Source: Psilocybe cubensis (Eukaryota). Taken from it: a DNA stretch of 64,000 bases. Position 1 is the stretch's first letter. The number at the start of each line of letters is the position of its first letter. The notes below the pieces were generated by a model that was not told where the DNA came from, made no database searches, and worked only from the letters and a program-made list of their open reading frames with translations. The DNA is taken from positions 62,001-126,000 of the forward strand of contig CM039004.1 in assembly GCA_017499595.2 (NCBI GenBank), read 5' to 3'. The position numbers and the translations under genes were made by a program. This document shows positions 1-40,974 of this stretch, in pieces.

Positions 1-1
1 C

Positions 2-1651
2 GAGTTAGTTGGTGGAAAGTGGAAGTGGGATGAAAACAATCCAGTGAAGGTGCCTGTCTTTTACGGGATACCCAAAATTCACAAAACACCCGTAAAAATG
101 CGGCCTATTATACCGTGTCACTCCGCGATTCAAAATCCCGCGGCCAAATATTGTAGCAAAAAACTTAAACCGCTTATCAATGCGGCGCCATCCATTATAC
201 ATGGAACCAAAGACCTGGCGATAAAATTAAGTAAGCTCGAGTTGAATACGAGTCGTCAGTACTTTATTGTTACTGGCGATGTAGTTGCCTATTACCCGAA
301 TATACCAATCGATTCATGTCTACAAATTGTATCTGACATGTACGACGAGTACTATACGGCCGAAGAGAATAGAGCATGGGATGAAGATCCCGACTACGTC
401 CCGATTTCACCCGATGAACACGAACTGTTCAGACGATGCTTGAGATTCGGAAATACTCAGCTTATAGCACAGTTTCAAGATAAATTCTACTTGCAGAAAA
501 GAGGATTAGCGATGGGAGTCGCGTCTTCGCCGGATTTAGCCAATCTCTACGGCTGGCATTTCGAGCGCTCAAGTGGAATTATGAATCACCCGTCCGTAGC
601 TTTCTATGGCAGGTACATCGACGATTGTCTTGCAATTGTTTATGCTTCTTCAGAACTAGAAGCCGTAAACATTATGAAGACTTTAACATTCGCCGGCTGT
701 GTAATAGAATGGTCCGCTTCAAAGGCTCAGCCTTTCCTCGACATGCTTCTTTACATCGATTTTGCCAATAATCGACGTTTAGAACACATGCCGTACCGCA
801 AGAGCGGAAACCATCAGGAAAGAATTCCATTCGTTAGCCATCATCCCATGGACGTCAAAAGAGGCACGTTCATCGGCGAGATGAGTAGGATGGCCACCCT
901 CAGTAGTACTATAGTCCACTACCGAGATGCGATCAAACAACTTGTTGCTTTGTACATCGCGCGTGGTTATCCGAGCGGCTTGGTATCTAAATGGATGCGA
1001 GAAAACATCAAAGTACGATGGCAGAAACGGCTGAATGTCCCTGTCCGTGCGCACGAAGACGTGCTTGTTCTCAAATCAGAATTTAATACCGCATGGAATT
1101 GGTTTTCCGCGCAAGAGCTCAAAGACGTACTTGTGGGATATTGGCAGAACTATATGATAAAAGCTGCCAATGGGTCGTTCGATGATGAATACCCCATTTT
1201 GTCCCATCGTACTGGAAGCCTGGAAGGGCCGACCATTCCCTATGAGGTGCTTACGCAAATCAGAGTGAGTGATCTGCCTTCTCCTTTCCATATGGTGGAC
1301 ATCAGGAAAATTGATGTCCCACGAAGAAGAATTCTTGTGTCGCGGAAACGCACCAAGAATCTTTTCGACTATACAAGTCTTTGGAAAAAACTCGTCGTTG
1401 AGAAGCTCGACAAGGATGTTCTTAATCCTGACGACAACGCTAATACGGCGCACGATATTAACAACGCCTTGAACGATTCCCGCTCCGGTGGGTCTCTAGT
1501 AGGGCCGCGCGAAATTGTGTTGCCGGGCGAAGTCGACGATGCTCCGTCTCCCATGTCTATAAATCTTCACGCGGGAAGTGATGATCCCATGGAAGGCGAT
1601 TTGGAGTACGTCGAACGTCAAGATGTCCTTCTCGATAACTTATTCAGATAA
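2..1651 (+). CDS. Penelope-like reverse transcriptase (partial; frame open from window start), no GIY-YIG endonuclease
   Basis: Motifs FYGIPKIHK..MRPI, GDVVAYYPNIP, QKRGLAMG..SPDLANLY, RYIDD, FLD and SHHP. The protein ends after the RKRTKNLFD linker with no GIY-YIG motif. Confidence 0.92.
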   Translation, partial: ELVGGKWKWDENNPVKVPVFYGIPKIHKTPVKMRPIIPCHSAIQNPAAKYCSKKLKPLINAAPSIIHGTKDLAIKLSKLELNTSRQYFIVTGDVVAYYPNIPIDSCLQIVSDMYDEYYTAEENRAWDEDPDYVPISPDEHELFRRCLRFGNTQLIAQFQDKFYLQKRGLAMGVASSPDLANLYGWHFERSSGIMNHPSVAFYGRYIDDCLAIVYASSELEAVNIMKTLTFAGCVIEWSASKAQPFLDMLLYIDFANNRRLEHMPYRKSGNHQERIPFVSHHPMDVKRGTFIGEMSRMATLSSTIVHYRDAIKQLVALYIARGYPSGLVSKWMRENIKVRWQKRLNVPVRAHEDVLVLKSEFNTAWNWFSAQELKDVLVGYWQNYMIKAANGSFDDEYPILSHRTGSLEGPTIPYEVLTQIRVSDLPSPFHMVDIRKIDVPRRRILVSRKRTKNLFDYTSLWKKLVVEKLDKDVLNPDDNANTAHDINNALNDSRSGGSLVGPREIVLPGEVDDAPSPMSINLHAGSDDPMEGDLEYVERQDVLLDNLFR

Positions 1652-2145
1652 AGCAGCACACGCTTAGATGTGTAAGGGTCTACACATAGGCCTTCTGCGG
1701 CGTGTCTAAACTAGACGTTTAATGCTAAAACCTGGTAATTCCTCTTCTGTCGTCGTATGACTTCGTCGAGGTTCTGTCCTGCTAGTTTGGGAGTGTAATT
1801 AGATTTCCCTTGGGGTCGCCCATCTAGTAAAGATCAGGCAGTACGCTGGAAACAGCTGGTCTGGGCCTTAGGGTATCCAGTCAGTGACTGCTCCAACGTC
1901 CCGATTCCGAAAGGACAAAGGTGGTTCGACTCGTGAACGAATGAAAATACATTACTCTGATGGCTTGCCATAGCCGTAATGAATAAGTTCAGCACTCTTG
2001 CGTTATAATATTATTCCTAACGAAAACCTATATTTGTTTTCACAGGACTTACGGTCCAACCGCGCTCGTCGATGAGGGTATCGGCGAATATTCTTGGGAA
2101 GCGGTGTCCACATAACCAGTGGTAGAGAGTTTTTAACACATTCTA

Positions 2146-2269
2146 AAAAAACCCTAACCGTAAGTCGACTCGATTAATCTCGAGATACTTTGTTGTATTG
2201 ATTCTTCGGCGGTTTTGGCTTTAGCTAACCCTAAACCCTAAACCCTAAACCCTAAATGCCCTAACCCTA
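2146..2269 (+). repeat. Internal telomere-like tract of element A, interrupted by a putative 65-nt intron (2160-2224)
   Basis: AAAAAAACCCTAACC|GTAAGT...GGCTTTAG|CTAACCCTAAACCCTAAACCCTAAACCCTAAA. Confidence 0.8.
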
Positions 2270-2497
2270 CTAGCGTGGTAGGGTTGTCACATGACGTGAT
2301 GAGTCACGCGACCTAGTAAGTCACATGACTCGGCCGGCATTTCGGCGATCAAGCCGAAATTCAAGCGGAGTTTAAAATTCGGAGATATTACTAATCCTCG
2401 GAGAAATTGCCAAACTTCGGAACAACAAAGGTGAAAACTCGCTCCGAGGTTTCTTTAACTTCGGACCTCGGATTAATATAGGTAAAATGGCTATATA

Positions 2498-2567
2498 TGG
2501 ACCTGATGAGCCTTATAAAAAGGCGAAAAAGTGGAAGGGAGCTTCTCCAAGCCCCCACTTTTGTCCA
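2498..2567 (+). ncRNA. Type I hammerhead ribozyme (element A terminal region)
   Basis: Stem I TGGAC/GTCCA, core CTGATGA, stem II GCCTT-ATAAA-AAGGC, GAAA, stem III AAGTGG/CCACTT, UH = TT at 2561-2562. Confidence 0.9.
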
Positions 2568-2597
2568 CAAGCCTTAGGCCATCCAGCCTTTTCCTAA

Positions 2598-2632
2598 CCA
2601 ACTCGCAGCTCGCTTCGCTCGCTGCTCGTTGG
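2598..2632 (-). other. GAA-triloop hairpin with tandem GA/GA mismatches on the minus (cDNA) strand
   Basis: Minus strand reads CCAAC GA GCAGC GA GC GAA GC GA GCTGC GA GTTGG. Confidence 0.75.
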
Positions 2633-2635
2633 GCA

Positions 2636-2652
2636 CCCTAAAACCCTAACCC
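2636..2652 (+). repeat. Short telomeric junction capping 5'-truncated element B
   Basis: CCCTAAAACCCTAACCC is followed directly by GTCGACAACAAG, which corresponds to internal position ~42160 of full-length copy C. Confidence 0.8.
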
Positions 2653-2654
2653 GT

Positions 2655-5105
2655 CGACAACAAGAAGAAAGGGAAGGGGAGAGCTCCCGTCAAGAACGAT
2701 CCAAAGGGAAAGGGAAAGGCAAGAGCCTAAACGCGCGGTTTTCTGTTGCACCATTTACGTCGGTGAGACCCGCTTTCCCCAACTCTATTCCTGACGATAT
2801 ACTCACCATGACTAAAACAGACGCAGTTTCTTTTGTACACTTACATACGCCGATCTCATTCTTGTTGGCTGGCCAGTATCGTAGTAGTGTACATTGTAGT
2901 CCTGGTGTGGTGGTCCCTGTAGATATAGCAAACGATTTGTCGCTCGGACTTAATTATATGTTTTTTACTCTGCCTTCTCAAAGTCTGATCATGCAAGCAT
3001 GGAATGATTTTCAACGAAGAATAAGATGGCGTATCTATTTTTTGTTTAAGGAAGGCATGAATAAACCTTTTGATCCAGATTATGGAGTAAGTTCTAAGAA
3101 AAAAGAAAAACCTCCTGTATTACCGCAATTTATGGAACTTGGCCTTTCGATGGGACGTCGGTACGTGCAACGCACGATCGCAAGTATCCCGGAAGAAGCC
3201 CTTACGGAGATGCGAAAGCACGTGTTCTCTCCTAAAAGGGACAAGATCCGTAAGTTTCTTATCGATAACAACTATGTTATTACGATGACAGATAAGAATC
3301 TTGGCCTCGCGGTGTCTGAACGCAACTGGATATTAAGGAATGAGCTCAATCTTCTTGAAGATGAACGTAATTACGAAGAGTTAGAATTCGAAGTTGCGCA
3401 AGAAGTAATGAAGAGCAAAATGATCCAGATGCAAACTCTCGCACGTACCGTCGAAGATGAACATCTGTTTCTTTATGAACTTGGCTTAGCTCGATTTTTT
3501 CTATCAAATGTACCGGAAGACGGATCATCGTTCAAGTATCCTCAATTTCATGGTATACCTAAAATCCATAAGAAACCTACTGGATTTAGGCCCATAATTC
3601 CGTGTCATTCTGTAGTATTTAATCCTGCAGCCAAGTTTGTATCAAAAGAGCTTAAGCCGATTATTAAATCGACTCCTTCAATCATACACGGAACGAAGGA
3701 TCTCTTTACGAGATTAAGCCAATTGCGTATAGACTCCAAAAGACAATGGTATTTTGTCACTGGAGATGTAGTTGCTTTCTATCCCAATATCCCGTTGGAC
3801 TCGTGCATCGAAATCGTTTGTAGTATGTACGAGGAATGGTTACTCAACACTTCGGAAGAAAACACTGCATTAGCCCATATTAAACCAAATTCGTTAGAAA
3901 ATAACTTGATTAAATTGGGCATCTTTAAACGTGCTATCGAGATTGGCAATACGCAATTGATAACACAACATGGGTCTAGATATTTTAGACAAAAAAATGG
4001 CCTCGCAATGGGCGTCGCGGACTCTCCGGACCTTGCTAACCTCTTTGGAGCCCATTTTGAAATAAAGTCAAAAATCTTAGACCACCCGAATGTGGACTTC
4101 TATGGAAGGTACATCGACGATTGTTTCGCAATTGTTTACGCCAAGTCCGAAGCACTTGCACTTAATTTAATTAAAGAAACAATAAAGTTCGATGGTTGTG
4201 TTATCGAATGGGTTGTTTCCTCGTCGGGATGTCAATTTCTCGATGCTTTCATATTCAAGGAGTCTGGAAAACTTCATTGGAAGCCATTTGTCAAGACAGG
4301 AAACAACCGAGAACGAGTTCCATGGGTATCACATCATCCTTTGGACGTCAAACGTGGCGTCTACATTGGAGAGTTATCCAGGTTAGCCGTGCTATGTAGT
4401 ACCAAGGAAATCTACATCGGAGCAATTAGAGACCTTAACGCTCTCTATTTGATGCGCGGTTATCCCGAAAACCTAGTCATGTCTTGGTGTAAGAAGAATA
4501 TACAAGAACGTTGGGAAAAGCGATTCGCTTTACGAGTCGCAGAGCACGACGAATCCATTCTTGTACTTAAAACCAGGTTTGATCAGGTATGGAATTGGTT
4601 TTCAGCTGCTGAACTTGGAAAGACTGTTACCGAGTACTGGTCGGCATGGTATGAACATGCCGAGAAAGGTCTGTATAGTGCAGACTCGTCCAGACCCCTT
4701 ATCAAACCAGATCCAAATTACGTTCACGACCTCGATGATGTTCGCCCGGAGCTGTTCACACAGATCCTCGTGGACGGAGAAACTGAGTTCGTACCGGATT
4801 TGAGGAAGATAGGACTACTCGGAAGTCGTTGGATAGTATCGCGAAAACGCAATACTAATCTTTTCGACCTTGCAAATGTGTGGAAGAAAACAGTCTTTCG
4901 TAAACTGGATGAAGACATTGCTGAAAAAGGTGGTGTTGTTCCCGAAACTCAAAACGTTAATGAAACTTATCATTCTGCTTTAGTTGAAGCTGCTGAACAG
5001 ATAAGTATCGAAAGTGATAACGAGATAATACTTCATAGACGTTCAATCTCACAAGAGAGGGAACATCCAGAATTCGGCAGAATATCCAAATCTTACAACC
5101 GATGA
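2655..5105 (+). CDS. Penelope-like reverse transcriptase, intact frame but 5'-truncated, no endonuclease
   Basis: Motifs LSLGLNY, TDKNLGL, FHGIPKIHK, GDVVAFYPNIP, GLAMG, RYIDD, FLD and SHHP. The frame is open from the truncation point (ORF track starts it at 2763). Confidence 0.92.
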   Translation, partial: RQQEEREGESSRQERSKGKGKGKSLNARFSVAPFTSVRPAFPNSIPDDILTMTKTDAVSFVHLHTPISFLLAGQYRSSVHCSPGVVVPVDIANDLSLGLNYMFFTLPSQSLIMQAWNDFQRRIRWRIYFLFKEGMNKPFDPDYGVSSKKKEKPPVLPQFMELGLSMGRRYVQRTIASIPEEALTEMRKHVFSPKRDKIRKFLIDNNYVITMTDKNLGLAVSERNWILRNELNLLEDERNYEELEFEVAQEVMKSKMIQMQTLARTVEDEHLFLYELGLARFFLSNVPEDGSSFKYPQFHGIPKIHKKPTGFRPIIPCHSVVFNPAAKFVSKELKPIIKSTPSIIHGTKDLFTRLSQLRIDSKRQWYFVTGDVVAFYPNIPLDSCIEIVCSMYEEWLLNTSEENTALAHIKPNSLENNLIKLGIFKRAIEIGNTQLITQHGSRYFRQKNGLAMGVADSPDLANLFGAHFEIKSKILDHPNVDFYGRYIDDCFAIVYAKSEALALNLIKETIKFDGCVIEWVVSSSGCQFLDAFIFKESGKLHWKPFVKTGNNRERVPWVSHHPLDVKRGVYIGELSRLAVLCSTKEIYIGAIRDLNALYLMRGYPENLVMSWCKKNIQERWEKRFALRVAEHDESILVLKTRFDQVWNWFSAAELGKTVTEYWSAWYEHAEKGLYSADSSRPLIKPDPNYVHDLDDVRPELFTQILVDGETEFVPDLRKIGLLGSRWIVSRKRNTNLFDLANVWKKTVFRKLDEDIAEKGGVVPETQNVNETYHSALVEAAEQISIESDNEIILHRRSISQEREHPEFGRISKSYNR

Positions 5106-5139
5106 AAAGAATACTAGCGCGTAAGGCGTAAAGCATTAG

Positions 5140-5279
5140 AAAAAAACCCTAACCGTAAGTATTCCTTGCTACAAAGTAACAAACATCTACTTACAAGCAA
5201 CACATTGGATTAAATAGCTAAACCTAAACCTAAACCCTAAACCCTAAGCCCTAAGCCCTAACCTAACCCCAACCCTAAG
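5140..5279 (+). repeat. Internal degenerate telomere-like tract of element B, interrupted by a putative 63-nt intron (5155-5217)
   Basis: AAAAAAACCCTAACC|GTAAGT...TTAAATAG|CTAAACCTAAACCTAAACCCTAAACCCTAAGCCCTAAG. Confidence 0.8.
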
Positions 5280-5814
5280 CTAACTAAGTCTAACCTTAGT
5301 AGGAAGTAAGGTAGGCGTGTGAACTTCCGAACGGCATGTGATTGTGAAGGGCCGGATCTAATTTAGTACATGGGAAAAGTTACTTAGTACTTCGGGAAAA
5401 GTTCCTTAGTACCGTGGAAACATTTTTAATGGACCGGATCATGAACTGTCCAATTAAGATTCACAACAATCAATCAATTGATTGTTAGGTAAGGACCCAG
5501 GTAAGCTATTTATACTCTTGACATGAGAATATTCCCATGTCGCGGTTACTTGGAGCCACGTAACCAGAGTACTCTATATCCATGTGATTTACATCACAGT
5601 CAATAACCCACGATGTCAAAGAACAAAAGTGTTGGATCCACTTTTGACAGGTTACCATGTGCCACATCGACCCGTGACACTCTGTTCATCAGAGACCTGT
5701 CTAACTTGACAATAAACATTGACAGATTTGTGATAGTCGGTAAGATACATGACAGCTGCGCAGCTTCACTTCACGCGCTGTCATCGGATGTTCCAGAACA
5801 TTCCTTCTAAGAAT

Positions 5815-5879
5815 AGCCACTGAAGAGTCTATAAAGACGAAAGGGCTGGCTGCTGATAACAATCAACAGCCCTCTGGCT
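5815..5879 (+). ncRNA. Type I hammerhead ribozyme (element B terminal repeat), intact core
   Basis: Stem I AGCCA/TGGCT, core CTGAAGA, stem II GTCT-ATAA-AGAC, GAAA, stem III GGGCTG/CAGCCC, UH = TC at 5873-5874. Confidence 0.93.
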
Positions 5880-5909
5880 TCTTTCCATTTAACTCACAGT
5901 TTAAAACAA

Positions 5910-5944
5910 GTCGCTCGCACCTCGCTTCGCTCGGTGCTCGCTCC
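5910..5944 (-). other. GAA-triloop hairpin with three tandem GA/GA mismatches on the minus strand
   Basis: Minus strand reads G GA GC GA GCACC GA GC GAA GC GA GGTGC GA GC GA C. Copies at 41006-41040 and ~45417-45451. Confidence 0.75.
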
Positions 5945-5946
5945 CA

Positions 5947-5989
5947 CCCTAAACCCTAAACCCTAAACCCTAAAACATAACTAAACCCT
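5947..5989 (+). repeat. Buried telomeric tract (CCCTAAA)4 plus degenerate units; probable former chromosome end
   Basis: Direct reading. Lies exactly at the 3' end of element B. Confidence 0.85.
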
Positions 5990-6184
5990 TGTTGCCTTAC
6001 ATGTACAAGCCATTCCGAGACTGCCAGGCAGAGGTGGTGTTGCAGAGTGCCGATGTTAACGCAGGACAGGTGGGCGAGAAAAGGTGTGGATGAAGAGGGT
6101 GTCAGAGTGACATTCGTGAGTGTCATTGCAATACAACCCGATTGATTAACTCACCTAAGAAACTCATCGTCGCTGTCATTTACG

Positions 6185-12620: not shown

Positions 12621-13743
12621 GAAGGCCACATAGCGATGCACTAAAGTAACAAGGAGTGTAAGATGCAGATGGAGGGTATGGGTGACGAGTCACCTGTCTC
12701 AACGGGTGACGATGGAGAGGCGGTGGAGGGTGACCGGTGAAGAGCCAAGTGGGATAGACAATGACCATTGTATACAGTAAAATGATAAGGAATAATAGGA
12801 GAGTGGATAGAGATGATTCAAGCACAGCTATTCAATGAATGGGAATAGCAAGCGCTTCTTTCACGCACCTGTGCGCCCATCAAAAACACATTTCTTTCAT
12901 CCCGTCATCAAACTCTCCCTCACCCTGAGCTCACTGGCGCCGACTCACATTCTGGATCCCCACAGGACCATGCACCAGCGCACGCAAAAGTCTCGTTCCA
13001 GTCTGAGCAGCATGGAGCGCTTGTCCTGGGCCTTGTTTTCGACAGCGTGCCTCGAGGAGTGGGGATCAGGACAGACGTGTATGTGATTCTGATAGAGGTG
13101 TACCAGGTGATAGACTACGGACGACATATTCTCAGAGAGGCCTCAGCAATCGGATGAGGGTTGGTGGTTGTAGTGAGGGCTTGGAGATTGGTATAGAGAG
13201 ATAGAGGGTAAGACAATATTTACTCACTCATATCCATACACGCACACACTCGCCTTCTACAAAAAGCCCTCTTCATACCCCACACCTGCGCACGGGTGCA
13301 CGCACTAGGGGACCACTGCTCAATGGGCCCCGCCACACGCTGCGTCTACATGCCACTCGTCGTCGAATCCGTACTCGTCAATATCATGGCCGATGTGTTC
13401 ACGCGCATACAGTCCATCAGCATCAAGTTCAGGGAGCCTTGCAGGGGGCTCAAGCGGGAGCTCGGTTGGCAAGTGTGAATATTTCAATGAGCATCGACAA
13501 CCACATCGTGGCGGAGCGCGGAAGCTCCTCTCCTCTCCACAGTGAGTCCAATGGCCTTGTTTCCCTATCGAGCTCGCTGCTGGAATTGTCTTGAAAACAG
13601 GTGAGCTCGAGCTGTTGAATAGCGCGCAGTCACTTCCCACGTCGTTCTCAGCCACCCGACATGCTTCAAAGGTGAGTCGACACGCCCAGCGACCTCACCC
13701 TATCGTTGTAAACAACCCGCTACAGGTACAGACACAAACGTAA

Positions 13744-13896
13744 CCAACCCTAACCGGACTAATCTGTGCTTTTGTGGTATATCGAGTCCCAACCAACCCT
13801 AATGCTAAACCCTAAACCATCCTAATCTGTATTTTTGTGGTCACCACCAACCCTAAACTATAAACCCTAACCAATGCTAATATGTGCTTTGTGGTG
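13744..13896 (+). repeat. Telomere-like subtelomeric module, copy 1
   Basis: Three units of CCAACCCTAA...CTAAT(C/A)TGT...TTTGTGGT with embedded AAACCCTAAA. Second copy at ~33740-33926. Confidence 0.8.
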
Positions 13897-16800: not shown

Positions 16801-19639
16801 GGAGAACATGGAAGGTCCTGTCAATGGAACTCATCGTCGATCGTATGGCTATTAAACATTTGCACCCATCGCCGACGCCACTCTCCCTGATGCCTTCGAT
16901 GAGGTTGACAATACATGCGCTGACGATCAGCACAATGGGTTGAGATTGGTTGCTATTCGACTTGCGCATGAGGAGCGAGATGGTAAATTTGTTTTTTAAT
17001 GGCACATACTGCACCAGGTCTGGATGAAAAAAAAAAAATGGTTCAGCGAGAGAACGAGCAAAAAGGATTTGAATAAAAAGAGAAAGAAAACGAACCAGAA
17101 GCTGTTCTCCGTGATTCTCAGATCGGGTTTAAGTTCTATCTAGCGTTAACTTAACCTCCTAACCTGATCCCCTCCAATGTCCGCGCGCTCCCACCCTCCC
17201 TCATTGGTAAGATCCAAGTTCATTGGCGATTCGTTCATCTTGTAATACTGATTTTGTGCCACAGAATGTGATGGTGGGTAATGACCTTGTTGACCAACGC
17301 GCCATGAATCTTCTTGGTGCCCAGCGCGTGGCGCTCGAAGTCGACGACGATGTTACGCCCCTCAGTAAGTGCAATAATGCACACGGACCGCAACGATCCC
17401 ATCTGTTGATGAATTTATTGTTAATGGAGGTCGTGATGAAGGGAAGGAAATGGATGCGTTCATACTCGCCTGGGAGCGCGCATTCGAGTGGGGGTGATGT
17501 GCCAGTCAAGATGACGAACGGGTCTAGCTAACCCCAATAACAGTATGCAAGCTTGTCGCACTGCCCTTCTGTTAATCCTCAACCACTGTCGGCTGCATAT
17601 ACCCGTGCTTCGAGTCGTTGTCGTCGTTGTAGGATGGTGGTAGAAGAGAGAAATGAAAAAGTACCGTGGGCGTGTTTGTCCGTGTTGTGGACACGGCGGA
17701 AGCAAAACGCACTGGCAACTGGATGGATGGACGGATGGGCCGCGAAACCGAGAAAAGAACACAAAAAAAAAAAACACACACACAGTGAAACATAACATTA
17801 TACATTTCGTATGGATGTGGACGTACAGGGGTGGCTGAAGTATAAAAAGGACACCAACTATGAGGTTTTTTTCTTCATCCCCTCTCCTCTCCTCTCTTCT
17901 CATGTTCTCTCCTCTGCTCGCATCCTCTTTCTCTTCCCTCCGCTCAACGCCCTTCAGCACGCCCCTTTCAGCTATCCTACACACGCACCGACACAGCCGA
18001 TGGATGGAAGCGCACCGCGACGTGTCAACAAATGCACAGGAATACAATGCCGTGAATGTTACTTATCCCTCTTCCACTGCCCTCTGCTCAACACCCTTGG
18101 CAGCACGCCCCCTGGTCCGTCCTATGCTTTGCACCAACACCGCATATGGATGCAGAAGCGCCGCGCCGCAATATGGCCCACATCACCGTGAGTATCGTCC
18201 GCCCCCTCGCATTCTGAGCCGCTGCTAACCATCACCCTCGCAGGAACATTATTGCCGACGAGTGAAGGATCTGGGAGGTAGAGGTCGACGACAGACGACC
18301 AAGTGAGTCTACTCTGTCCTCGCATCCCTCTGCAACCTCACAACCATCATCCCATGTTTTGTTTGCCTGGGTCCACTCTTGAAGACCGCCCCATAAAAGT
18401 GTTGAATTGACCTGGAAGGCGACGCCGGCGACGGACAACGATACCTATGTAAGTAATTCAACGTGTGGTTTACTGTGAATCATACTGGACTGACCTTGAC
18501 ACGAGGATTCTCTGCACTAGAATGCAGCACACCCCGTGCCCCGCTCACCTCAACCGCCCCGCAGCAGAGAAGATTTGTAGCCGTTTCCAGCAGCGACTCG
18601 TGCTCAGATTTAACGTGTGGACCACGGATGGTAGGGGAGGGAGGGATGGTGCTGATGCCCTGGATGTGTGAGTACGCCGTGGGAAACAACAGGGCACCAG
18701 CTGGACACGTCGGAGAGAGTACGGGCCAGCGACGGCGTCGTTTCGCGTGATTTTGTAGTCGGGTGGGGGGAATACGGGTCTAGTTGACGGGCTTGAGGAT
18801 GGCGTTGCAGGGCAGGTAAGTTGACCCGTTGTCGACGCGAATCATACTAGACTGACCTGAAATACAGTAGCTGACATCCAACCACGCCCGCCTGTCCATC
18901 TTCTCTAGTGACATACACCCTGTCGGCACCTTGCAAGTCTACAGGCGCTCCCGCGCCAGCCCATATCGTATGACAAGGTGGTTTCGCATGGCTTTGGATG
19001 CGGTCATTTTCGAGTTGGATGAGTGAAGGCAAAGGGCTGGTGGTTGCGAGGTGAGATGCACTCGTCACAGCGGACTCACTAAATGTGTGTGCTCTTGGTC
19101 AACGTCGATGCAGAGCGGGAGGCAATAATTGTGAGAGGTTTGGGCGCTGAAATTGATGGTTTACATTGCAGGGATTGTTAATGCTCATTTAATAGTACGA
19201 CCGCGAGTGTGAATGTGAGTGTGAGAGTGTGTGTCGTGTGGTACGAAGACGGGATGGGACGGGACAGGTGGAGATGGGTGGGAGATAAATGCTGCCAAAA
19301 CTGAAGAAAACACACCTTAATGCATATAATATATGTGTGACAACAACCTCTGCTCATCGCCCCAATTCAGCCCTCATCCAATCGTAGTATAGTAATGACC
19401 GTCAGCGGAGCTTCGAAGATGGATGGAGGTGTTAACCAATGAAGAGGAGCCATGGAGGACAGCAGCAGGGTGAGGGGTAGAGCTGGATGCAACAATGATA
19501 CGAAGTGCATAATATGGTAACACGTCGCTGCAGTGCGCGTAAGGGTAAAAGGCGGAGTTTGAATGCAATGACAACAGCATGGACAAACAACTCGCCGTAC
19601 GTTGCCGTTGGGAAGGCGGCGCGGCGGCAGAGAGAGGCT

Positions 19640-20242
19640 GCAAATGGAGGCGGAGGCGGCAGCAACAGGCGGCGAGTGGAGGCGGTGGCAGCAGTAGCGG
19701 CCCGGGGGTGGCGGTGCAACGACACGCAGCAGAGTGCGTGTCGTGGTGGTTGGCGAGTGGACGCGACGGCGGGACGACAGCCGGCGAGGGGAGGCGGCAG
19801 CAGCAGCAGCAGCCCGGAGGTGGCAGTGCAAAGACATGCAGCGGCGAGCGCGAGTGTCGGGACAGCAAGCGCGAGTGTTGGGACAGCAAGCGCAGGCATT
19901 GGGACAGCGAGCGCAGGCGTCGGGGGCGGTGAGACAGGCGGGAGGCCGGCCTCCAGTGCCTGTCAAAAATTATTTTTAGACAGAGGCCGGCCTCCAGTGC
20001 CTGTCAAAAGTTATTTTTAGACGGAGGCCGGCCTCCAGTGGCCTCCATCAATTTGGAGGCCGGCCTCCATAAATTACACATTTAATTACGTAGCACCTCC
20101 GTATGTACAAAATAAAATATTTTGAAAGTGTATTTGGGGGTTTTTGGGGTCCAGGAATCCGAATCTGGCATCAGATTTCAGGAATTCTGAACAGGAGGCC
20201 CAATGCAACGAAGGCCCCCCCTTCGGGGGGGAATAAGCCTAG
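19640..20242 (+). mobile_element. Element X terminal block, copy X1 (left boundary approximate)
   Basis: GC-rich repeats, four GAGGCCGGCCTCC palindromes, AT-rich segment, CCCCCCC-TTC-GGGGGGG hairpin and AATAAGCCTAG end, shared with 23094, 40375 and 56417. Confidence 0.8.
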
Positions 20243-21519
20243 GAACCAGGCCCATCTGTTGAGGATGAAAATGCGGATGTTGAGATGACCACGGACGCGC
20301 CTGCCACGGATGTTGTGCAACCCCTGCCCATTACACCCGACAACGATATGGTCAGATGCCTGCGCCAATCCTATGGATACCTCCCTGGCACAACGACGAC
20401 AGCCTGCGCCGCGTCAGACTGGGATGAACTTGTCGAAACCTTTGGGTTTACAGAGTTACTTACCCCAGAAGTTGCCCTGGACGCTCGACAACATATCCAC
20501 ATGTTTTACATGGCTTCCATCGAGCCTGCGAGCACAGAAATGCCCGCCGCCCTCTCTGACCTCAATACGCACAGCCTGACATCCCTGTCTCGTCTGCTGG
20601 ACCTGTCGCAAATACACCGCCCTCACCAGAATCTTTTTGTTTTTTCAGAACCTCGTTCAGAGGAACACGAGTGGATGTTGGGTGTCGAAACGGCGGAGAT
20701 CGCCCTCTACGTGTGTCGGCTCAGGTTAGAGCACTCCTGGGCTCGCATCGACTCCCTCACAAAAATGCTGCTGGAGAGAGGTGTGCCCTGTCGCACTCTC
20801 ATGGGCATTGAAATGTCGGGTCGCTGCTCCACTGTCCAGGAGCCATACACCCCTCGATCTGTCCGCCCGTCAGCGTACAAATTTGGCGTTGATGACTTCG
20901 AAGCATACCGATTGCAATGCGAGAACATCATCAAACACCAACAACACGGTCGGGCTGCCTTGCTGAGGGGTGGATTGGTGGGTAGGATAGCCAGTGAGTT
21001 TCTGAGCGTCGACGATGGGCTGGCTGGCCCCTCTAAGGAAATCATTCAGAACCGGCAGGGGTTCATCGTGCCAGCTGGCGACACGACTTGGTGTTATTGC
21101 GACGACCAGCTCACGGAGAACGAGCTGTCCATTATATGCGGCACCTACACGCTGTACACAGGTATGTTTTCCTTGTTTATTCTCAATTTTATGCACTAAC
21201 AACATTTTTCTCAGCTACTAAAGGTCAAATAACTGTAAAATCGTGGTTCCCTCCCCCGAACCTGTGGCAGGTGCCCCCCAGCATGAACGGATCACAATGG
21301 GTGGAATGGACGCCTGCCAACGAGGCATGGTACCGTGAACGCGTAGAAGACATCCGCACTCGGCAGGCCCAGCCATTAACAAGAGTGCAATGGAAATCAA
21401 TATTGCGCGGCACTCCTCCCAGTAGGAAGCTTCTGGCGGCAGCGTCTCAACGAGCTCAGGCCTTTGTCAACGGGCACGTACCGGTGGTGCCAACTTATCG
21501 TGTTCGCCCAGGCCTGTAG
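20243..21519 (+). pseudogene. 5'-truncated copy of the X-associated hypothetical gene (intron 21162-21214)
   Basis: Protein nearly identical to the C-terminal part of 51740-55020; lacks the 5' ~2 kb. Confidence 0.85.
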
Positions 21520-21759
21520 TTACATTGTCAATGTAAGTGTTTTTTCATTTAAGAATAGCCCATTCTAACAAAAATATGTAGATATATGCGTGTTTTTTTG
21601 TTCAAAATGTCATATAAATTTATTTTTTGGTGTCTACACAAGAGAGCTCGCGTGAGATATATACAAGTTGATATCAGGGTAAGATGACTAGTTATAAAAA
21701 ATCTAACAAAATTACAGTACAGCAAGGCCGAGGTGTATCAAAGACAAAACAGCGAAATG

Positions 21760-22830
21760 GCAGCGACAGGAGGCGAGTAGAGGCAGCGCGGCGGCAGCGA
21801 CAGGCGGCGACGGCGGGACAACAGGCGGCGACGGCGGAATGACAGGCGGGGAGGGGAGGCGGCAGTGGCAGCGGCGGCCCGGTGTGGCGGCGCAACAACA
21901 CGCAGCAGAGTGCGTGTCGTGGTGGGCGGCGAGTGGACGCGACGGCGGGACGACGCGCGGTGACGTTGTGACGACAGGCGGCGACGGCGGGACGACAGGC
22001 GGCGACGGCGGGACGACAGGCGTTGACAGCGGAATGACAGGCGGCGAGGCAGGCGGCAGCGGCAGCGGCGGTCCGGTGTGACGGCGCAACAACATGCAGC
22101 AGAGTGCGTGTTGTGGTGGGCGGCGACTAGACGCGACGGCGGGACGACGCGCGGTGACGTCGTGACAACAGGCGGCGACGACGGGATGACACGCGGTGAC
22201 GGCTGAACGACAGACGGCGACGGCGGGACGACACGCGCTGACGGCGGAATGACAGGCGGCGAGGGAAGGCGGCAGTGGCAGCGGCGGTCCGGTGTGACGG
22301 CGCAACAACACGCAGCAGAGTGCGTGTTGTGGTGGGCGGCGAGTGGACGCGAAGGCGGGACGACAGGCGGCGACGGCGGGACGACACGCGCTGACGGCGG
22401 AATGACAGGCGGCGAGGGAAGGCGGCAGCGGCATGACAGGGGACGAGGAGAGGCGGCAGCAGCAGCAGCGGCACGGGTGTGGCGGCGCAACAACACGCAG
22501 CAGAGTGCGTGTTGTGGTGGGCGGCGACTAGACGCGACGGCGGGATGACGCGCGGTGACGTCGTGACGACAGGCGGCGACGGCGGGATGACACGCGGTGA
22601 CGGCTGAACGACAGGCGTCGAGTGGAGGTGGCGGCAGCAGCAGCGGCCCGGAGGTGGCAGCGCAACAACATGCAGCGGCAAGCGCAGGCGTCGGGCAGAC
22701 GGCGAGCGCAAGCGTTGGGACGGCGAGCGCTGGCGTTGGGACGGCGAGCGCAAGCTTTGGGACGGCGAGCGCTGGCGTTGGGACGGCGAGCGCAAGCTTT
22801 GGGACGGCGAGCGCTGGCATCGGGAGACAG
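21760..22830. repeat. GC-rich, strand-skewed degenerate tandem repeats of element X
   Basis: Recurring CGCAACAACACGCAGCAGAGTGCGTG units, GACAGGCGGCGACGGCGG subrepeats and 21-nt GGGACGGCGAGCGC units. Homologous to 55240-56110. Confidence 0.85.
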
Positions 22831-23092
22831 GCGGGAGGCCGGCCTCCAGTGCCTGTCAAAAGTTATTTTTAGACGGAGGCCGGCCTCCAGTGGCCTCCAT
22901 CAATTTGGAGGCCGGCCTCCATAAATTACACATTTAATTACGTAGCACCTCCGTATGTACAAAATAAAATATTTTGAAAGTGTATTTGGGGGTTTTTGGG
23001 GTCCAGGAATCCGAATCTGGCATCAGATTTCAGGAATTCTGAACAGGAGGCCCAATGCAACGAAGGCCCCCCCTTTGGGGGGGAATAAGCCT

Positions 23093-24770
23093 AGGCTGGT
23101 CAACTTGCTGACTGTGAGGTGTCTTCAGAATGAACACGCTGCCCTCATACCTCGCATCCTCGAGCTCTCTATCGCATCGCCGTCACCAGGGAGTCCGTCT
23201 GGCAGCGAGTCGGATGGGCATGCTCCGTGCAGTCCCTCCTACTACGTGTTGTACAGGCCGTCGTCATTGGGCTGTTCAACGTTCAGACTGTAGGGTGAGG
23301 TCATACCGTCTCTTCACTCTCCACTGTTGTCACTCTCGCCACTGTGTATCCTGCAGCTATTCCCTCACTCCTACACTTCCCGTGTTGTGTGCGAGGTTGT
23401 TGTCACTCGCATCCGCAACCATCGCAAGCGTCGTGATCGCCTGCTCCTGCACATACCGCCTCACCTGCGTCTGGTCACCGCCCGGATTCAACAACTTCAG
23501 CAGGCGCTTGACAATCGGGTCAAGATAGGAAAGGAGGGTATCACGCTTGATGCCCTCGCAGAAGTTGATAAGCGCCGACGCGGTGTGCGCGTGGACTCGT
23601 GGTTCGGGATCTTCGAGGGCGGGGATGAGGACAGCGAAGAGTTGGCGGTGGAAGCGGTGTTTGTAATTGCTGGGCATTGCAAACTTGGTGGTGGGAAGTT
23701 GATATGTCGCGTCAGAGCATTCAACAAGGTCAGAACGCATCAAAGATACCGCAAGTCGACGTGCTTATGCGGGAAGTCGCTATCTGACTTGTGTCGAGAA
23801 CGCGTTCAGACTAGCTACGTTGTGTCGGAGGAATGGCAGCACGTGTGGGCAGCGGGACACACATTTATTCTGGCTCATCGGACGGCCTTGAAGTCGATAT
23901 GTCGCGTCAGAGCACTCTGGCTACACAAACGAGGTCAGGACGCATGAAGAATACCGCAAATTGACGTACTTACCAACTCTCCTTTAATGTCTTCTAACAG
24001 GTCACCTCGCGTGAAGTCGATACATTGCATCCGAGCATTCAGACTATAGAATAAAAGTCAGAATGTGCCCAAAGCACTTACCATATCTTGATATACAAGT
24101 TGGGTAGAACTATAAAATAGCAGATGGACCGCTCGCGGGAAGTCGATACGTTGCGTCGGAGTATTCAGACTATAAAGTAAACGTCAGAAAGTGACCAAAG
24201 CACTCAAATTCAACTTACTTACCACTCAATGTACAAGTCGAGTAGATGGGCAACTCCCGGGAAATCGATACGTCGTGTCGGAGTATTCAGTCTTTAAAAG
24301 ACCCAATGGACCGCTCGCGGGAAGTCGATACATTGCCTCTGAGCACTCTGGGCTGAAAAAAAAGGTCAGAACAACTCCCAAACCCTGCAAAGTGATGTGC
24401 TTACCAACAAGTCACCCTCAATACGACACCAGCTGTCCACACAAATGCAAAAGTCAGTACAGTGATCAACACCAGATGTAAACTACATACCTTTCAGTCA
24501 CCAAGCCTCTTTGCTCAATGTTCACCGGCCGTCCAAATCTCAAATCAAACCCTGCAATGCATGGTCAGTACCGTGGAACTCTGATGACGGCTGAAAAACT
24601 TACCCATGGTGGTGGTGGTTCAAAGTCAAAGTGTGATGCGACGGCAGTGTCCATGTTTGGCATGGCCAAACAACGGATAGCGGTGGTGGAACATTCCCCC
24701 AGCATCAGGGCATAATGCACGGCTGGAATTCAGCAAATGTACTCCCTCTTTATCCTTTTTTCTGCCAAGG
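23093..24770. repeat. Segmental duplication, copy 2 (of 9640-11149), truncated on the left by X2
   Basis: Identity begins at the AGG shared with the X2 terminus. Confidence 0.88.
23405..23665 (-). pseudogene. Importin-5/Pse1 (Kap121)-like HEAT-repeat gene fragment
   Basis: HRQLFAVLIPALEDPEPRVHAHTASALINFCEG...YLDPIVKRLLKLL...YVQEQAITTLAMVADAS. Flanks are unrelated and the fragment is absent from the duplicate at 9640-11149. Confidence 0.82.
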
Positions 24771-24958: not shown

Positions 24959-25257
24959 TGTAAGCCTGGAGACTTACCACACACGCAAACACGCACCGCA
25001 GGCGGACGCGCACAACAAAACGGCGCACAAACGCGAGCCCAGATTGGGTCTCGCTAATCAACTTACAAAGATATTGAGACCGAAAGACAAAAGGGAAACA
25101 AATGACCTTCGTTGCTTGACTAGAACGCTACGCAACGAAGGTAAATATATTATAGTAATTTACTACACATCATGTATAGACTAGAACGCTACGCAACGAA
25201 GAGAGCGTTGTCCCTTCTGTTTCAGCGAGTGAGGCTGCCGATCCCGACAGCCTTCCA
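24959..25257 (+). repeat. 5' LTR
   Basis: TGTAAGCCTGGAG...AGCCTTCCA. No differences from the 3' LTR seen by eye. Confidence 0.95.
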
Positions 25258-25314
25258 CTTTTTTTTTGAAGCCGACTACGTACCACCGCCGCACACTGTT
25301 ACCGTTACCGTAAA

Positions 25315-26976
25315 TTGCCCACACTGTATACCGAATCGTCGCGGACCACTCGAGCGTCGACCCAACGACGAGAAGAGCTTGGATTACCCTCAGAGCTTGT
25401 TCCAGGCCTTACTGTTTTCCGCAAACCACGAACTGAACCCCAAGGTCCACCGCCGTCACCGTCTGCCTCATCAGTGAATCTCAGCTTCTCAGATTCAGCG
25501 ACCTCTAACTCAGAGGACGAAGACCATACCGACACACACACTCCCACCGCGATCAGCAATCCGATCAGAGATCGACGCAATCGCCGCAACCCTAGGTATC
25601 CCACCGTTGTCAGAGTCAAGATGCCAAACGATGACGATAAACCGCTCGCTACGGTTGTCCAAAATAAGATGAAGGACGTACCGATTCTCACACCAGGGAA
25701 GATTGATCCTCTGGTAATGCAGCAGTGGGCGGTTGCTTGCCGCAAATACATGAAGCATGCAGCGAAGTCGCCAAAAGAAGTTGTGAAGTTTGTGGCCGAT
25801 GGAATGCAAGAACCAAGACTGGTGGCTTGGTATCAAGCAGATTCCACACGGATTGATGAACTGCCGCTGGAGAAATATCTGGAGGAGCTTCAAGTGCTCG
25901 TGTTGGAGAAGAAGTGGGCTCACAAAGTCCGTGAACAGATCCTAACGTCCTATCAGGGCGACCGTATTTTCATCGACTGGAAGATCGAAATGGAGAATTT
26001 GAATGCGATCTTGAAGACGATGGCACCAGAGGGGTACGCCTTCCCCAATGAAGCATTGAAGATACAGCTCGAGTCACACTTGAACCAGGAGCTTCGTGAG
26101 TCGCTCGGATTCGAGCCAGTCAAGGCCACCGAATTAGCCGCCTGGTCACTGGAAGTAAAGGACCGTGACGACCGCCTTCGTGAGGAACGTGCACGCACCC
26201 AACGTCAAATCGATGCGAGCTACGCAACACGAGTGGCTGCACGCAGGCTTGACAAGAAATCCTTGTTATTGCGTCTCTCGGATAGTCCAAATCCCAACCC
26301 TCGACCATCAAACAGCGAGTTCGATAATGGGGTGCGAAGGCCACTGTTACCTAAAATCACAGCAGAAGAACGTACATTACTCGACAATCACAATGGCTGT
26401 ACCAAATGCCGTCGATTTTACGTCAACCACCGCGCAAGGAACTGCCCAAATGGATGGCCAACAGCAAACGGATACAAGACCCTTACAGAAGAGATGGCAT
26501 TAAAGGCACAACGTGAGAAGGATGCCAAAGAGCAGGGCACTAGGAAGTCCTTGCCCGTGGGGCAAATCAATGCTTCCTCCTCATATACCGTGCATGACGA
26601 GGAGACAGATTCTGATTCGTACGTCCCTACCATGTCTATGACCGTTCCGCACCTCTTTCCAGTTATGGAGATTGAGGGGCCAGCGGTTGTGGATTTTCCT
26701 CTTCGCATTCGACCAATGCTTGATACGGGATCTCCTTCCACAGTGATTGACGAGACACTCGTCACCCAGCTCGGCCTCCCCCGATATCCACTACCACCCG
26801 CCGAGGACAATTTGTCATCGATTGACAATACACCGCTAGAATGCAGGGAGTATGTTAAGATTCGGGTTGCATCAGGAAACGGGAGCTGGATATCACGGAC
26901 ACATAAAGCAAAGATTCATCAAAACCTATCTATACCGCTGCTACTTGGATTGTCATTTCTTTCCCAGAAAATATAG
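25315..26976 (+). CDS. gag: Gag plus aspartic protease (start codon uncertain)
   Basis: Zinc knuckle CTKCRRFYVNHRARNC and protease motif MLDTGS. Ends at a frameshift within the protease C-terminus. Confidence 0.85.
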   Translation: MPTLYTESSRTTRASTQRREELGLPSELVPGLTVFRKPRTEPQGPPPSPSASSVNLSFSDSATSNSEDEDHTDTHTPTAISNPIRDRRNRRNPRYPTVVRVKMPNDDDKPLATVVQNKMKDVPILTPGKIDPLVMQQWAVACRKYMKHAAKSPKEVVKFVADGMQEPRLVAWYQADSTRIDELPLEKYLEELQVLVLEKKWAHKVREQILTSYQGDRIFIDWKIEMENLNAILKTMAPEGYAFPNEALKIQLESHLNQELRESLGFEPVKATELAAWSLEVKDRDDRLREERARTQRQIDASYATRVAARRLDKKSLLLRLSDSPNPNPRPSNSEFDNGVRRPLLPKITAEERTLLDNHNGCTKCRRFYVNHRARNCPNGWPTANGYKTLTEEMALKAQREKDAKEQGTRKSLPVGQINASSSYTVHDEETDSDSYVPTMSMTVPHLFPVMEIEGPAVVDFPLRIRPMLDTGSPSTVIDETLVTQLGLPRYPLPPAEDNLSSIDNTPLECREYVKIRVASGNGSWISRTHKAKIHQNLSIPLLLGLSFLSQKI

Positions 26977-27029
26977 TCATTGATACTCGGAAACGAACGG
27001 CTATTGATAAGCGTTCTGGATATGATTTA

Positions 27030-30000: not shown

Positions 30001-30248
30001 ATCCAGAGAAATTTCCGGACAGAGAATTGGTACGACCACCAACAGTGATAACCGAGGACGGGGTGGAAGAGACAGTGATAGAGAAAATTGTGGATGCGAG
30101 AAAACGTGGTAGAGGGATGCAATATCTGGTACGATGGGCTGGATTTGGGAAGGAGCATGATGAGTGGCTTCCAGGGCGTATGCTTGAAGAGAATGAAGCA
30201 CTGGATAGATGGGAAGAGGAAGAGGCCGAGGACAAAGAAGACGAATAA
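27030..30248 (+). CDS. pol: Pol: RT, RNase H, integrase, chromodomain
   Basis: RT YLDD, RNase H TDAS and YTDH, integrase HHCC (H..GH..C..C) and D..D..E core, GPY motif, chromodomain YLVRWAGFGKEHDEW. Confidence 0.95.
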   Translation: MNPPTRDTLAAKSTAICEGLKTDAGIDQDKQRRSAMAKEQHLRSQVEPERAKQLVAAINEQISNIQFQQKLLRMDKEMKEKYRDRFPDRLPDNVDIPDHIYHRIRLVDKDKIHAGRGYAAPKKYHDAWKKLLDEHLAAGRIRPSSSEYASPAFCIPKYKNGVPDLSVPPRWVNDYREINKNTISDKFPLPRVDDILADCGKGKFFAKLDMTNSFFQTRVHPDDIHLTAVRTPWGLYEWVVMPMGGKNAPATHQRRMTDALRELIAQVCHVYLDDIVIWADTLEQLSERVEKVLKALRKAGLYCNAKKSVLFATEIIFLGHVISANGIHADPAKTDRIKKWPRPTNATNVRGFLGLTRYLAVFLPALAEHTSILSPLTSKECDRDFPKWTADHDRAFNAIKELVTGAECLTVIDYDDPEGKIYVTTDASDRRTGAVLSFGKDWESARPVAYDSYQLKDAEKNYPTHEKELLAIVKALKKWRSSLLGVKFEVYTDHRTLEYFQAQKEMSRRQMRWSMYMADFDFEICYIRGEENVAADALSRMPDEEPNSRFAACALAYTRNPNRAPRGFVGSVLSIEIDQEFVQAIKDGYDADPFVKQFRDGMQKHSLTGAREEEGLIYLGQRLVIPNDRKIRERLYYLAHDVLGHFGFDKSYEALHGSYYWPNMRRDLEKAYIPSCTECQRNKDRTTKPTGPLHPLPVPDKRLTSVALDFIGPLPEEKERDTILTMTCRLGTDIQLIATHSSWTTEQIAHKVVDHWICENGLMEELICDRDTIFTSDLWTAICKILNVKIKMSTAYHPETDGASERTNKTVNQAIRYYVDRNQKGWLDKLPRIRFAMMNTVNASTGYSGFQLKTGRSPRIIPTMAKANKDAPMVETSAREIIRKIEIDVKEAQDALHTAKIRQAAQANEQRGNEIVYQPGDMVMLSTKNRRRNYKRKGKKRVAKFMPRFDGPYVVEAAFPERSEYTLRLPNNPKTFPGFHASLLKPFVPNDPEKFPDRELVRPPTVITEDGVEETVIEKIVDARKRGRGMQYLVRWAGFGKEHDEWLPGRMLEENEALDRWEEEEAEDKEDE

Positions 30249-30300
30249 CGCCATAGAGAACAGACCCTTTCACGATGGAATTCTTCAGAGGGGGGAGGGG

Positions 30301-30599
30301 TGTAAGCCTGGAGACTTACCACACACGCAAACACGCACCGCAGGCGGACGCGCACAACAAAACGGCGCACAAACGCGAGCCCAGATTGGGTCTCGCTAAT
30401 CAACTTACAAAGATATTGAGACCGAAAGACAAAAGGGAAACAAATGACCTTCGTTGCTTGACTAGAACGCTACGCAACGAAGGTAAATATATTATAGTAA
30501 TTTACTACACATCATGTATAGACTAGAACGCTACGCAACGAAGAGAGCGTTGTCCCTTCTGTTTCAGCGAGTGAGGCTGCCGATCCCGACAGCCTTCCA
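30301..30599 (+). repeat. 3' LTR
   Basis: Copy of 24959-25257, preceded by the PPT and followed by the TSD. Confidence 0.95.
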
Positions 30600-40910: not shown

Positions 40911-40974
40911 AGCCACTGAAGAGTCTATAAAGACAAAAGGGCTGGTTGTGAACAACAGTTCACAGTCCTCTGGC
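40911..40974 (+). ncRNA. Hammerhead ribozyme, mutated core (GAAA to AAAA)
   Basis: AGCCA CTGAAGA GTCT-ATAA-AGAC AAAA GGGCTG...CAGTCC TC TGGC. Confidence 0.8.

Follow-up and report, generated by a model that had tools for sequence, protein, structure and literature searches.

Intron-like inserts in two Penelope-like element families

We analysed a 64,000-nt window of Psilocybe cubensis DNA (GenBank assembly GCA_017499595.2, contig CM039004.1, positions 62,001 to 126,000 of the forward strand; all coordinates below count from the first base of this window), in which short intron-like inserts split the telomere-like tracts of Penelope-like elements (PLEs). Three copies are treated here, all on the plus strand: element A, and two copies, B1 and B2, of a divergent element B. 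The reverse transcriptase (RT) open reading frame (ORF) of A (2-1651, ORF list) is cut on its 5' side by the window edge and is followed by a 3' untranslated region (UTR; 1652-2144). The upstream exon of A ends (2145-2159) with a run of seven A (2145-2151) and the word CCCTAACC (2152-2159). A 65-nt insert (2160-2224) of the form GTAAGT...TTTAG comes next, with GT at 2160-2161 and AG at 2223-2224; CTAACCCTAAACCCTAAACCC comes directly after it, and an internal C-strand telomere-like tract extends over 2225-2270. B1 has the same layout. Its upstream exon ends at 5140-5154 (A-run 5140-5146, CCCTAACC 5147-5154), its insert of 63 nt (5155-5217) reads GTAAGT...AATAG with GT at 5155-5156 and AG at 5216-5217, CTAAACCTAAACC comes directly after the insert, and a degenerate internal telomere-like tract fills 5218-5279. 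These boundaries come from direct reading, combined with word counts against shuffles for the exon ends, a tract search for the tracts, a splice-signal list for both inserts and spacer analysis for that of A.

Twenty letters, the A-run plus CCCTAACC plus GTAAG, are common to A and B1 (5140-5159 in B1). The 14-mer CCCTAACCGTAAGT has two exact sites and one site with a single mismatch (44654) in the window, as against 0.01 expected from shuffles. The third site lies in B2, the other copy of B, which is decayed and whose insert (44662-44724) has its first base changed and reads TTAAGT. Around this shared segment the two elements are far apart: the RT products of A and B are 48% identical over 512 aa, and self-BLAST found no match between their 3' UTRs or between their inserts. 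The initial annotation had described both the shared CCCTAACC-GTAAGT...TAG-CTAA arrangement with inserts of 65 and 63 nt and the unrelatedness of the surrounding 3' UTRs and inserts, and both descriptions are borne out. Contigs from three other DNA runs (X11, X12 and X13) have the same unbroken order of B, insert, tract and terminal module and span the insert without a joint, and one 4429-nt contig among the other DNA runs is a circular permutation of the B unit. Run X15, which we guess to be an RNA run, yielded three contigs (4092-4252, 4391-4626 and 5239-5390), none of which spans a junction, and no run recorded as RNA was listed with window positions 1-6100. Candidate alternative acceptor motifs are also present in the window sequence, and a splice there would delete the tract.

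The B RT is 97-98% identical to Psilocybe cubensis proteins, its best relatives being unnamed or "reverse transcriptase domain" proteins of this species; of the 7999 candidates scored, 477 are relatives at E<=0.001. The Pfam RVT_1 match on B reached 27 bits, below the cut-off of 29.6, and on A there was no match at E<=0.01; Pfam matched no GIY-YIG endonuclease domain at E<=0.01 in either product (780 aa for B, 549 aa for A). The units stand head-to-tail with C-strand telomeric repeats between them and are subject to 5' truncation, and their terminal repeats contain a type-I hammerhead, both as in Coprina-type elements. Taken together, the sub-threshold RVT_1 match, the lack of an endonuclease match, the head-to-tail order, the C-strand repeats and the hammerheads fit the endonuclease-deficient, telomere-attaching Coprina kind of PLE (described in the covered parts of PMC8557442 and PMC6431247), to which the elements are provisionally assigned.

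Conservation, splice signals and repeat register

Relatives were taken from soil-metagenome loci, with RT similarity as the sole criterion. Of 259 matching stretches, 139 could be confirmed, and we retained the best 80, which have 33-73% identity to the B RT. The same order recurs downstream of the RT in these loci, namely a telomere-like word, GT, about 50-90 nt of family-specific sequence, AG and a telomere-like tract. A strict automatic list contains 44 sites (33 distinct) in 41 of 83 sequences; to enter it, a GT...AG segment had to measure 45-99 nt, and each of its flanks had to be telomere-like in 7 or more of 8 letters. With the imperfect-flank cases identified by eye added to this list, 54 of the 80 loci carry a GT...AG insert between telomere-like flanks. 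Two loci (L041 and L045) have GTGAGT after a telomere-like word and no clear insert end. Apart from these and the loci named further below, the insert-less contigs end before the region, as judged by how far the stop codon lies from the end of the contig. In a FastTree phylogeny of 81 RT rows, the insert occurs in nearly every clade, including the basal ones and all 16 B-type rows, and is missing from one long-branch clade of 7 rows; several long branches meet in this tree and its deep order is unsure. GT and AG are thus kept in other family members, in 54 of 80 loci and over nearly the whole RT tree, one of the points on which the initial annotation had let its proposal stand or fall. Judged from these sequences, the distribution is best explained if the putative intron is an ancient, position-conserved part of these elements. 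No relative was found in the viral contigs searched.

For an analysis blind to GT and AG, we defined a spacer as a non-telomeric stretch of 40-130 nt bounded on each side by the nearest exact telomere-like 8-mer block, and counted spacers as distinct at no more than 75% likeness. This gave 61 spacers, 39 of them distinct, and 21 of the 39 begin with GT and also end with AG, against about 0.15 expected. Several of the other 18 share this structure except that one flank is imperfect (L001, L016, L028, L029, L031, L053, L070 and B2). As a strand control, 2 spacers were found on the reverse strand and 109 on the plus strand. A control over all dinucleotides was uninformative, as sliding in long tracts yields every pair, and the maximal-boundary analysis was used instead.

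The signals inside the inserts resemble those of short introns. GT stands first in all 39 distinct introns listed, and the 5' hexamers at 33 distinct sites, which are in keeping with the fungal GTRNGT spectrum, are GTAAGT 13, GTGAGT 7, GTACGT 4, GTATGT 3, GTAAGC 2 and four singletons. Insert lengths run from 49 to 99 nt, with 31 of 33 falling within 49-71 nt, a CTNAY word lies 8-45 nt ahead of AG in 20 of the 33, and the internal sequences are unrelated between families. Such donor, branch and acceptor signals and a size of 49-99 nt broadly fit short fungal introns.

Removal of the insert restores the repeat register, as had been proposed for A and B, whose flanks indeed join in register. We extended this to 26 distinct inserts in which both 5-nt flanks are perfect telomere words. 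The joined flanks form a perfect 10-mer of the repeat in 23 of the 26, and sliding the downstream flank by 2, 3 or 4 nt leaves only 2-3 in register; a 1-nt slide still gives 18 of 26 and a 5-nt slide 12 of 26, so that the test is lenient, because units of 5, 6 and 7 nt are allowed. Six junction phases are seen: TAACC/CTAAC or TAACC/CTAAA, ACCCT/AAACC, AACCC/TAAAC, CTAAC/CCTAA, CCCTA/ACCCC and TAACC/TAACC. The insert lengths of 65 nt (A) and 63 nt (B) are not common multiples of the repeat unit, and the register is therefore due to exact GT..AG removal and not to in-place decay of a longer tract. The flanks are apparently under selection to rejoin in register. They follow three repeat types, CCCTAA, CCCTAAA and CCTAA. 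The window tracts at 2225-2255, 5947-5974 and 45454-45490 are of the 7-nt CCCTAAA type, which is also found in L036, L055, L057 and L060, while L056 has the CCTAA type, and both intron flanks match the local type. The three types among the relatives suggest hosts with different telomere repeats.

Some of the inserts also contain a hairpin. In the A insert it lies at 2169-2184 (plus strand; hexaloop search and stem alignment), with a CTCGA/TCGAG stem and a TTAATC loop. Hairpins with a YTAATC hexaloop, 13-17 nt past GT, characterise the A-type clade plus L055 and L060 (L016, L018, L023, L025, L028, L029, L035, L038, L053, L055 and L060). There are 19 distinct YTAATC sites after a telomere-flanked GT, 11 of which are closed by 4-7 bp, as against a background of 19 of 274 YTAATC sites with at least 4 bp, intron sites included. 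In 12 aligned hairpins, 91.7% of the cells pair against 50% in shuffles, a figure inflated because the examples were chosen for having a stem, and all six pairs vary on both sides. Counting any hairpin with a stem of at least 4 bp was not discriminating (24 of 39 introns against 16.9 +/- 2.6 in shuffles). The YTAATC hairpin is absent from the introns of the B-type clade, and a search near the hammerhead for a kissing partner of the loop gave no consistent complementary site. The YUAAUC hairpin of the A-type introns may bind a protein or tune splicing.

Unit anatomy and surrounding repeats

The order within a unit is RT ORF, 3' UTR, CCCTAACC word, intron, internal C-strand tract, a terminal module that we call module C and, at the junction with older DNA, a terminal telomere tract. 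The ORF stops about 50 nt (B) and about 500 nt (A) ahead of the internal tract. Module C measures 0.4-0.7 kb and contains a type-I hammerhead and a terminal hairpin. In A (2271-2635; Rfam sub-threshold matches, descriptor and hairpin search), these lie at 2498-2567 and 2605-2625, the latter with loop TCGCTTCGCTC, and the terminal tract of 2636-2652 adjoins the start of the 5'-truncated B1 (reading and self-BLAST). The B1 body covers 2653-5105, truncated at its 5' side relative to B2, with its RT ORF at 2763-5105 (ORF list, Pfam, self-BLAST and protein search). Its module C (5280-5946; self-BLAST, Rfam sub-threshold matches and descriptor) holds a hammerhead at 5815-5879 and a terminal hairpin at 5917-5937, and its terminal tract of (CCCTAAA)x4 at 5947-5974 is followed by unrelated DNA (reading, tract search and self-BLAST). 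The initial annotation had taken the split tract for the 3' end of the element; it is instead internal, as the hammerhead module and a second telomeric tract come after it.

By self-BLAST, the B unit at 2653-5974 matches 42160-45481 with 96.8% identity over 3325 nt; as the repeat match runs to 5974, the unit reaches about 700 nt beyond the insert. B2 (41082-44609; ORF list, reading and self-BLAST) has a full-length and decayed ORF with an in-frame stop at 43821-43823, followed by its internal tract, module C and terminal (CCCTAAA)x5 within 44725-45490 (tract search, reading and self-BLAST). Both B units close with a second telomeric tract, x4 at 5947-5974 and x5 at 45454-45490, and unrelated DNA follows each. 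Module C of B (5275-5956) is found a third time alone, at 40371-41052 upstream of B2 (self-BLAST), as a solo module resembling the pseudo-long terminal repeat (pLTR) of PLEs, which starts where the internal tract ends and has no intron. The two C copies flanking B2 (40371-41052 and 44782-45463) are 98.8% alike, as repeats of the long terminal repeat (LTR) type would be. They share a change in the hammerhead core, CGAAA to CAAAA, and seem to stem from one event with a template whose ribozyme core was already altered, later homogenisation being the alternative. With its mutated hammerheads, its ORF stop and the lost G of GT, B2 displays the pattern expected if that G is constrained only in live copies. 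Module C of A differs from that of B, only the last 50 nt being alike (2602-2652 against 5914-5963, 84.6%). The module of A is placed between A and B1, which shows module C to be part of the unit, copied together with the body.

A separate upstream repeat could be delimited in five contigs (B2, L025, L080, L076 and L061), where it begins at or after the tract and never includes the insert. The block of tract plus C also occurs alone, upstream of an ORF in a pLTR-like position or in tandem, as after the full unit in L039 (6360-7850) and L042 (4882-6327) and in L012, L022 and L011, and the intron is never part of it. Because these solo and upstream blocks exclude it, the intron forms the boundary at which the coding body meets a repeatable tail of tract plus C. 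The tandem blocks resemble a small hammerhead-bearing satellite or an array of the retrozyme type. In L001 (3145-3175), L031, L037 and L070, CCCTAACAG/GTAAGG or CTAACAGGTAAC stands just past a telomere-like stretch, downstream of the tract; this acceptor- and donor-like junction hints at further splice sites in those tails.

The hammerheads were identified with a descriptor built on three helices, the core motifs CUGANGA and GAAA, and a cleavage base other than G. It matches once per live module, at 2498-2567 (A) and 5815-5879 (B1), with predicted cleavage after 2562 and after 5874, respectively. Of the 80 related loci, 33 have a plus-strand match to it; the minus strand and 5 shuffles gave no match. 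Rfam hammerhead families match both window sites below threshold (26.8 and 19.7 bits, E 0.21 and 0.25), and an Rfam scan of the window at gathering thresholds gave no matches. The terminal hairpin, with its invariant 11-nt loop TCGCTTCGCTC, follows the hammerhead and precedes the terminal tract, from which about 13-18 nt separate it in the listed cases. It was found at 24 distinct sites (2605-2625, 5917-5937 and 41013-41033 in the window, and L008, L009, L026, L041, L045, L061, L066, L075 and others), 13 of which are closed by at least 4 bp of differing sequence. Its stems measure 4-8 bp (16 bp in L075) and are quite different in sequence. The hairpin recalls a template-boundary helix and may be where the RT engages its template.

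The window holds other repeats as well. A Ty3/gypsy chromodomain retrotransposon occupies 24959-30599 (ORFs 25315-26976 and 27030-30248), the second ORF product having RT, RNase H, integrase zinc-binding and chromo domain matches; its flanking 299-bp direct repeats are 100% identical, so that the insertion is young. At 33760-33930 and 13743-13896, two places that are 91.7% alike, interstitial degenerate telomere-like words alternate with a word of the CTAATCTG type. Another repeat family with internal tandem units is found at 19600-23100, 39700-40375 and 53742-56420, beside which lies a 1002-aa ORF (51692-54700) with no Pfam match, and one copy of this family directly adjoins the C module upstream of B2, telomeric repeats being absent from the junction.

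Interpretation and comparison with known systems

Our reading is that the inserts are genuine U2-type spliceosomal introns of endonuclease-less, telomere-attaching PLEs of the Coprina kind and that they have an RNA-sorting role; for this reading as a whole we estimate a probability of roughly 0.55. Its two parts differ in strength. That the insert is a real intron appears highly probable from the sequence marks described above, and for the sorting role the odds are about even. The intron and the downstream tail are kept in every DNA copy examined (A, B1, B2, the X11-X13 contigs and the 54 loci), and therefore the RNA is copied into DNA unspliced, running to the terminal tract. The retention of introns by PLEs is described in the covered parts of PMC8557442. 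The spliceosome would remove the insert from a fraction of the transcripts, fusing the two telomere-like half-sites in register, and the intron would in this way sort the transcripts into two sets. Those that are spliced would serve as a well-expressed messenger, those left unspliced would remain in the nucleus as template, and both forms would retain a usable telomere-complementary tract. The messenger half of this proposal is based on the known need of basidiomycetes for introns in mRNA accumulation.

Several points weigh against this reading. Splicing itself is something that we infer from the DNA, as is the sorting or expression role assigned to it. Telomere C-strand repeats resemble splice signals, CTAAC being the branch consensus and CTAACC standing three changes from GTAAGT, and part of the splice-like signal could be inherited from the repeats. 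In two loci (L027 and L043) the region is present with no recognisable insert, and no insert was seen in the distant clade L071-L080 (7 tree rows). The selection behind the hairpin pairing figure belongs here as well. The upkeep of the register poses a difficulty for a template that is always unspliced. One speculative solution is that the intron is reverse-spliced into an uninterrupted tract and the product then reverse-transcribed, which would keep the register automatically and could move the intron between phases.

An alternative is that the segment is not spliced at all and is a structured cis-element, for example an RT binding site beside the priming tract, its splice-like ends being leftovers of degenerate repeats. 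The invariant-loop YTAATC hairpin with covarying stems of 4-7 bp in 11 distinct introns speaks for this, as does the comparable hairpin-then-tract arrangement that closes the whole unit; it also draws on the resemblance between telomere repeats and branch and splice motifs and on the inferred nature of the splicing. But in the B-type clade (16 rows, all with insert) there is no such hairpin, and GT, a branch-like motif and AG are still in place, exactly at the tract boundaries. The 5' variants GTAAGT, GTGAGT, GTATGT and GTACGT are those that 5' splice sites tolerate, the lengths cluster at short-intron size, and the register is obtained only after exact GT..AG removal, with 65 and 63 nt not being common repeat multiples. 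We consider this explanation unlikely. The insert might also be the counterpart of the 5'-UTR intron in the pLTR of Penelope and Chlamys-3_cRei, where transcription starts in the pLTR (PMC8557442, covered parts), and would then belong to the leader of the next unit and overlap its promoter. An intron-tract-C block does lie upstream of the ORF in tandem or collapsed contigs such as L005, L020, L029 and L039. However, all five upstream repeats that could be delimited (B2, L025, L080, L076 and L061) exclude the intron, and the hammerhead between the intron and the next ORF would sever such a leader, which makes this reading very unlikely. Another explanation would be chance resemblance, or an artefact of assembling a repeat-rich subtelomere: GT...AG alone is low in information, and such regions are difficult to assemble. 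The motif count as compared with shuffles, the contigs from three other runs, the presence in 54 of 80 loci and the blind boundary analysis leave it practically no chance, and it was rejected on the strength of the independent contigs, the RT-selected loci and the blind analysis.

The remaining alternative, put forward in the initial annotation, is that spliceosomal first-step cleavage in the style of the fission-yeast telomerase RNA frees an RNA ending in ...AAACCCUAACC-3'OH, which would pair with the G-overhang and serve as template for insertions. Spliceosomal cleavage forms the 3' end of S. pombe TER1 and of the Neurospora and Aspergillus telomerase RNAs, so that several fungal telomerase RNAs obtain their 3' ends in this manner. 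In the present elements the 5' splice site comes directly after the telomere-complementary word in nearly all families, and elements without an endonuclease must use chromosome ends. However, an RNA ending at CCCUAACC would give copies without intron and module C, and there are none among A, B1, B2, X11-X13 and the 54 loci; each family has its own C module after its own ORF, that of A sitting between A and B1. In telomerase RNAs the second splicing step is blocked by a non-G first base or an unusual branch-AG arrangement, whereas GT is canonical in 39 of the 39 listed introns here and the branch-AG spacing is ordinary. There is also no U-rich Sm-like word before the site, the flank being A-rich or telomere-like. 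Because all copies keep intron and tail and the 5' splice site is canonical, first-step cleavage is unsupported as a route to new copies and is, in our assessment, highly improbable; it could still take place as a side reaction. What stands of the earlier interpretation is thus the spliceosomal-intron sequence marks, the conserved GT and AG and the restored register, and what falls is the tract as 3' end and the first-step cleavage that was to leave a telomere-pairing RNA end. More broadly, the spliceosome could be a built-in processing step of a telomere-targeting retroelement, either through a cut at the 5' splice site exposing CCCUAACC-3'OH or through splicing and reverse splicing that set the pairing with the G-overhang. 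We regard this as decidedly unlikely; if true, it would be the retroelement counterpart of telomerase-RNA 3'-end formation and would explain an intron in six repeat phases with the register always kept.

Much of the architecture is already known, namely telomeric repeats near 3' ends, hammerheads, pLTR-like repeats and PLE intron retention in general. The Coprina/Athena elements (Gladyshev and Arkhipova 2007) and Terminons (Arkhipova et al. 2017), as summarised in the covered parts of PMC8557442 and PMC6431247, are the closest systems. Like the elements here, Coprina/Athena are RT-only elements that occupy chromosome ends in head-to-tail order and whose sense strand points from the telomere towards the centromere; they have short reverse-complement telomeric repeats at or near the 3' end with a hammerhead beside them, and their 5'-truncated copies are capped by repeats. 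In contrast to those accounts, as far as the covered parts go, the present elements have a tract-splitting intron with in-register flanks, an intronic YUAAUC hairpin and a terminal hairpin with loop UCGCUUCGCUC, and about 60-70 nt separate their hammerhead from the terminal tract downstream of it, whereas in Coprina/Athena the two are immediately adjacent. Type-I hammerheads in the terminal repeats of fungal PLEs were described by Cervera and De la Pena (2014; PMC4209133, covered parts), and those at 2498-2567, at 5815-5879 and in 33 of 80 loci are of the same, already known form, monomeric type-I with a long helix III within a terminal repeat. In Coprina-1_Alen of the ascomycete Ascochyta lentis, the 3' direct repeat has a 104-bp segment that most 5' repeats lack (PMC13159263, covered parts), a difference of intron size. 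The texts covered (full-text literature, PMC8557442, PMC6431247, PMC4209133, PMC13159263, PMC7473861 and a 2026 bioRxiv preprint, each in part) hold no description of a tract-splitting in-register intron, of the intronic hairpin or of the terminal hairpin, a scope outside which stand the PNAS 2007 and MBE 2017 papers and the supplements, which could show them.

Introns retained in genomic copies are known from Penelope (75 bp) and Chlamys-3_cRei (398 bp), both in the 5' UTR within the pLTR (PMC8557442 and PMC4209133, covered parts). As here, genomic retroelement copies keep a spliceosomal intron in an untranslated region. Unlike those introns, the present one lies downstream of the ORF, outside the pLTR-like repeat and within telomere-like repeats, and whereas the end of the Penelope intron touches the hammerhead, at least 270 nt separate intron and hammerhead here. 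The significance of intron retention in PLEs is given as unknown in the covered part of PMC8557442. Why PLEs keep introns although they pass through RNA has puzzled the field since 2003, and to this question the present elements add an ancient, sharply defined and easily assayed intron of about 60 nt at the seam of a coding body and a telomere-pairing tail. The fungal telomerase RNAs offer a parallel in that their 5' splice site also stands directly after the functional end of a telomere-related RNA. The block of the second step and the upstream Sm site of those RNAs are not seen in the present elements, whose DNA copies show that the template RNA reads through. Whether splicing separates messenger from template RNA, or the spliceosome helps to shape a telomere-complementary RNA, bears on how telomerase-like RTs come to use chromosome ends.

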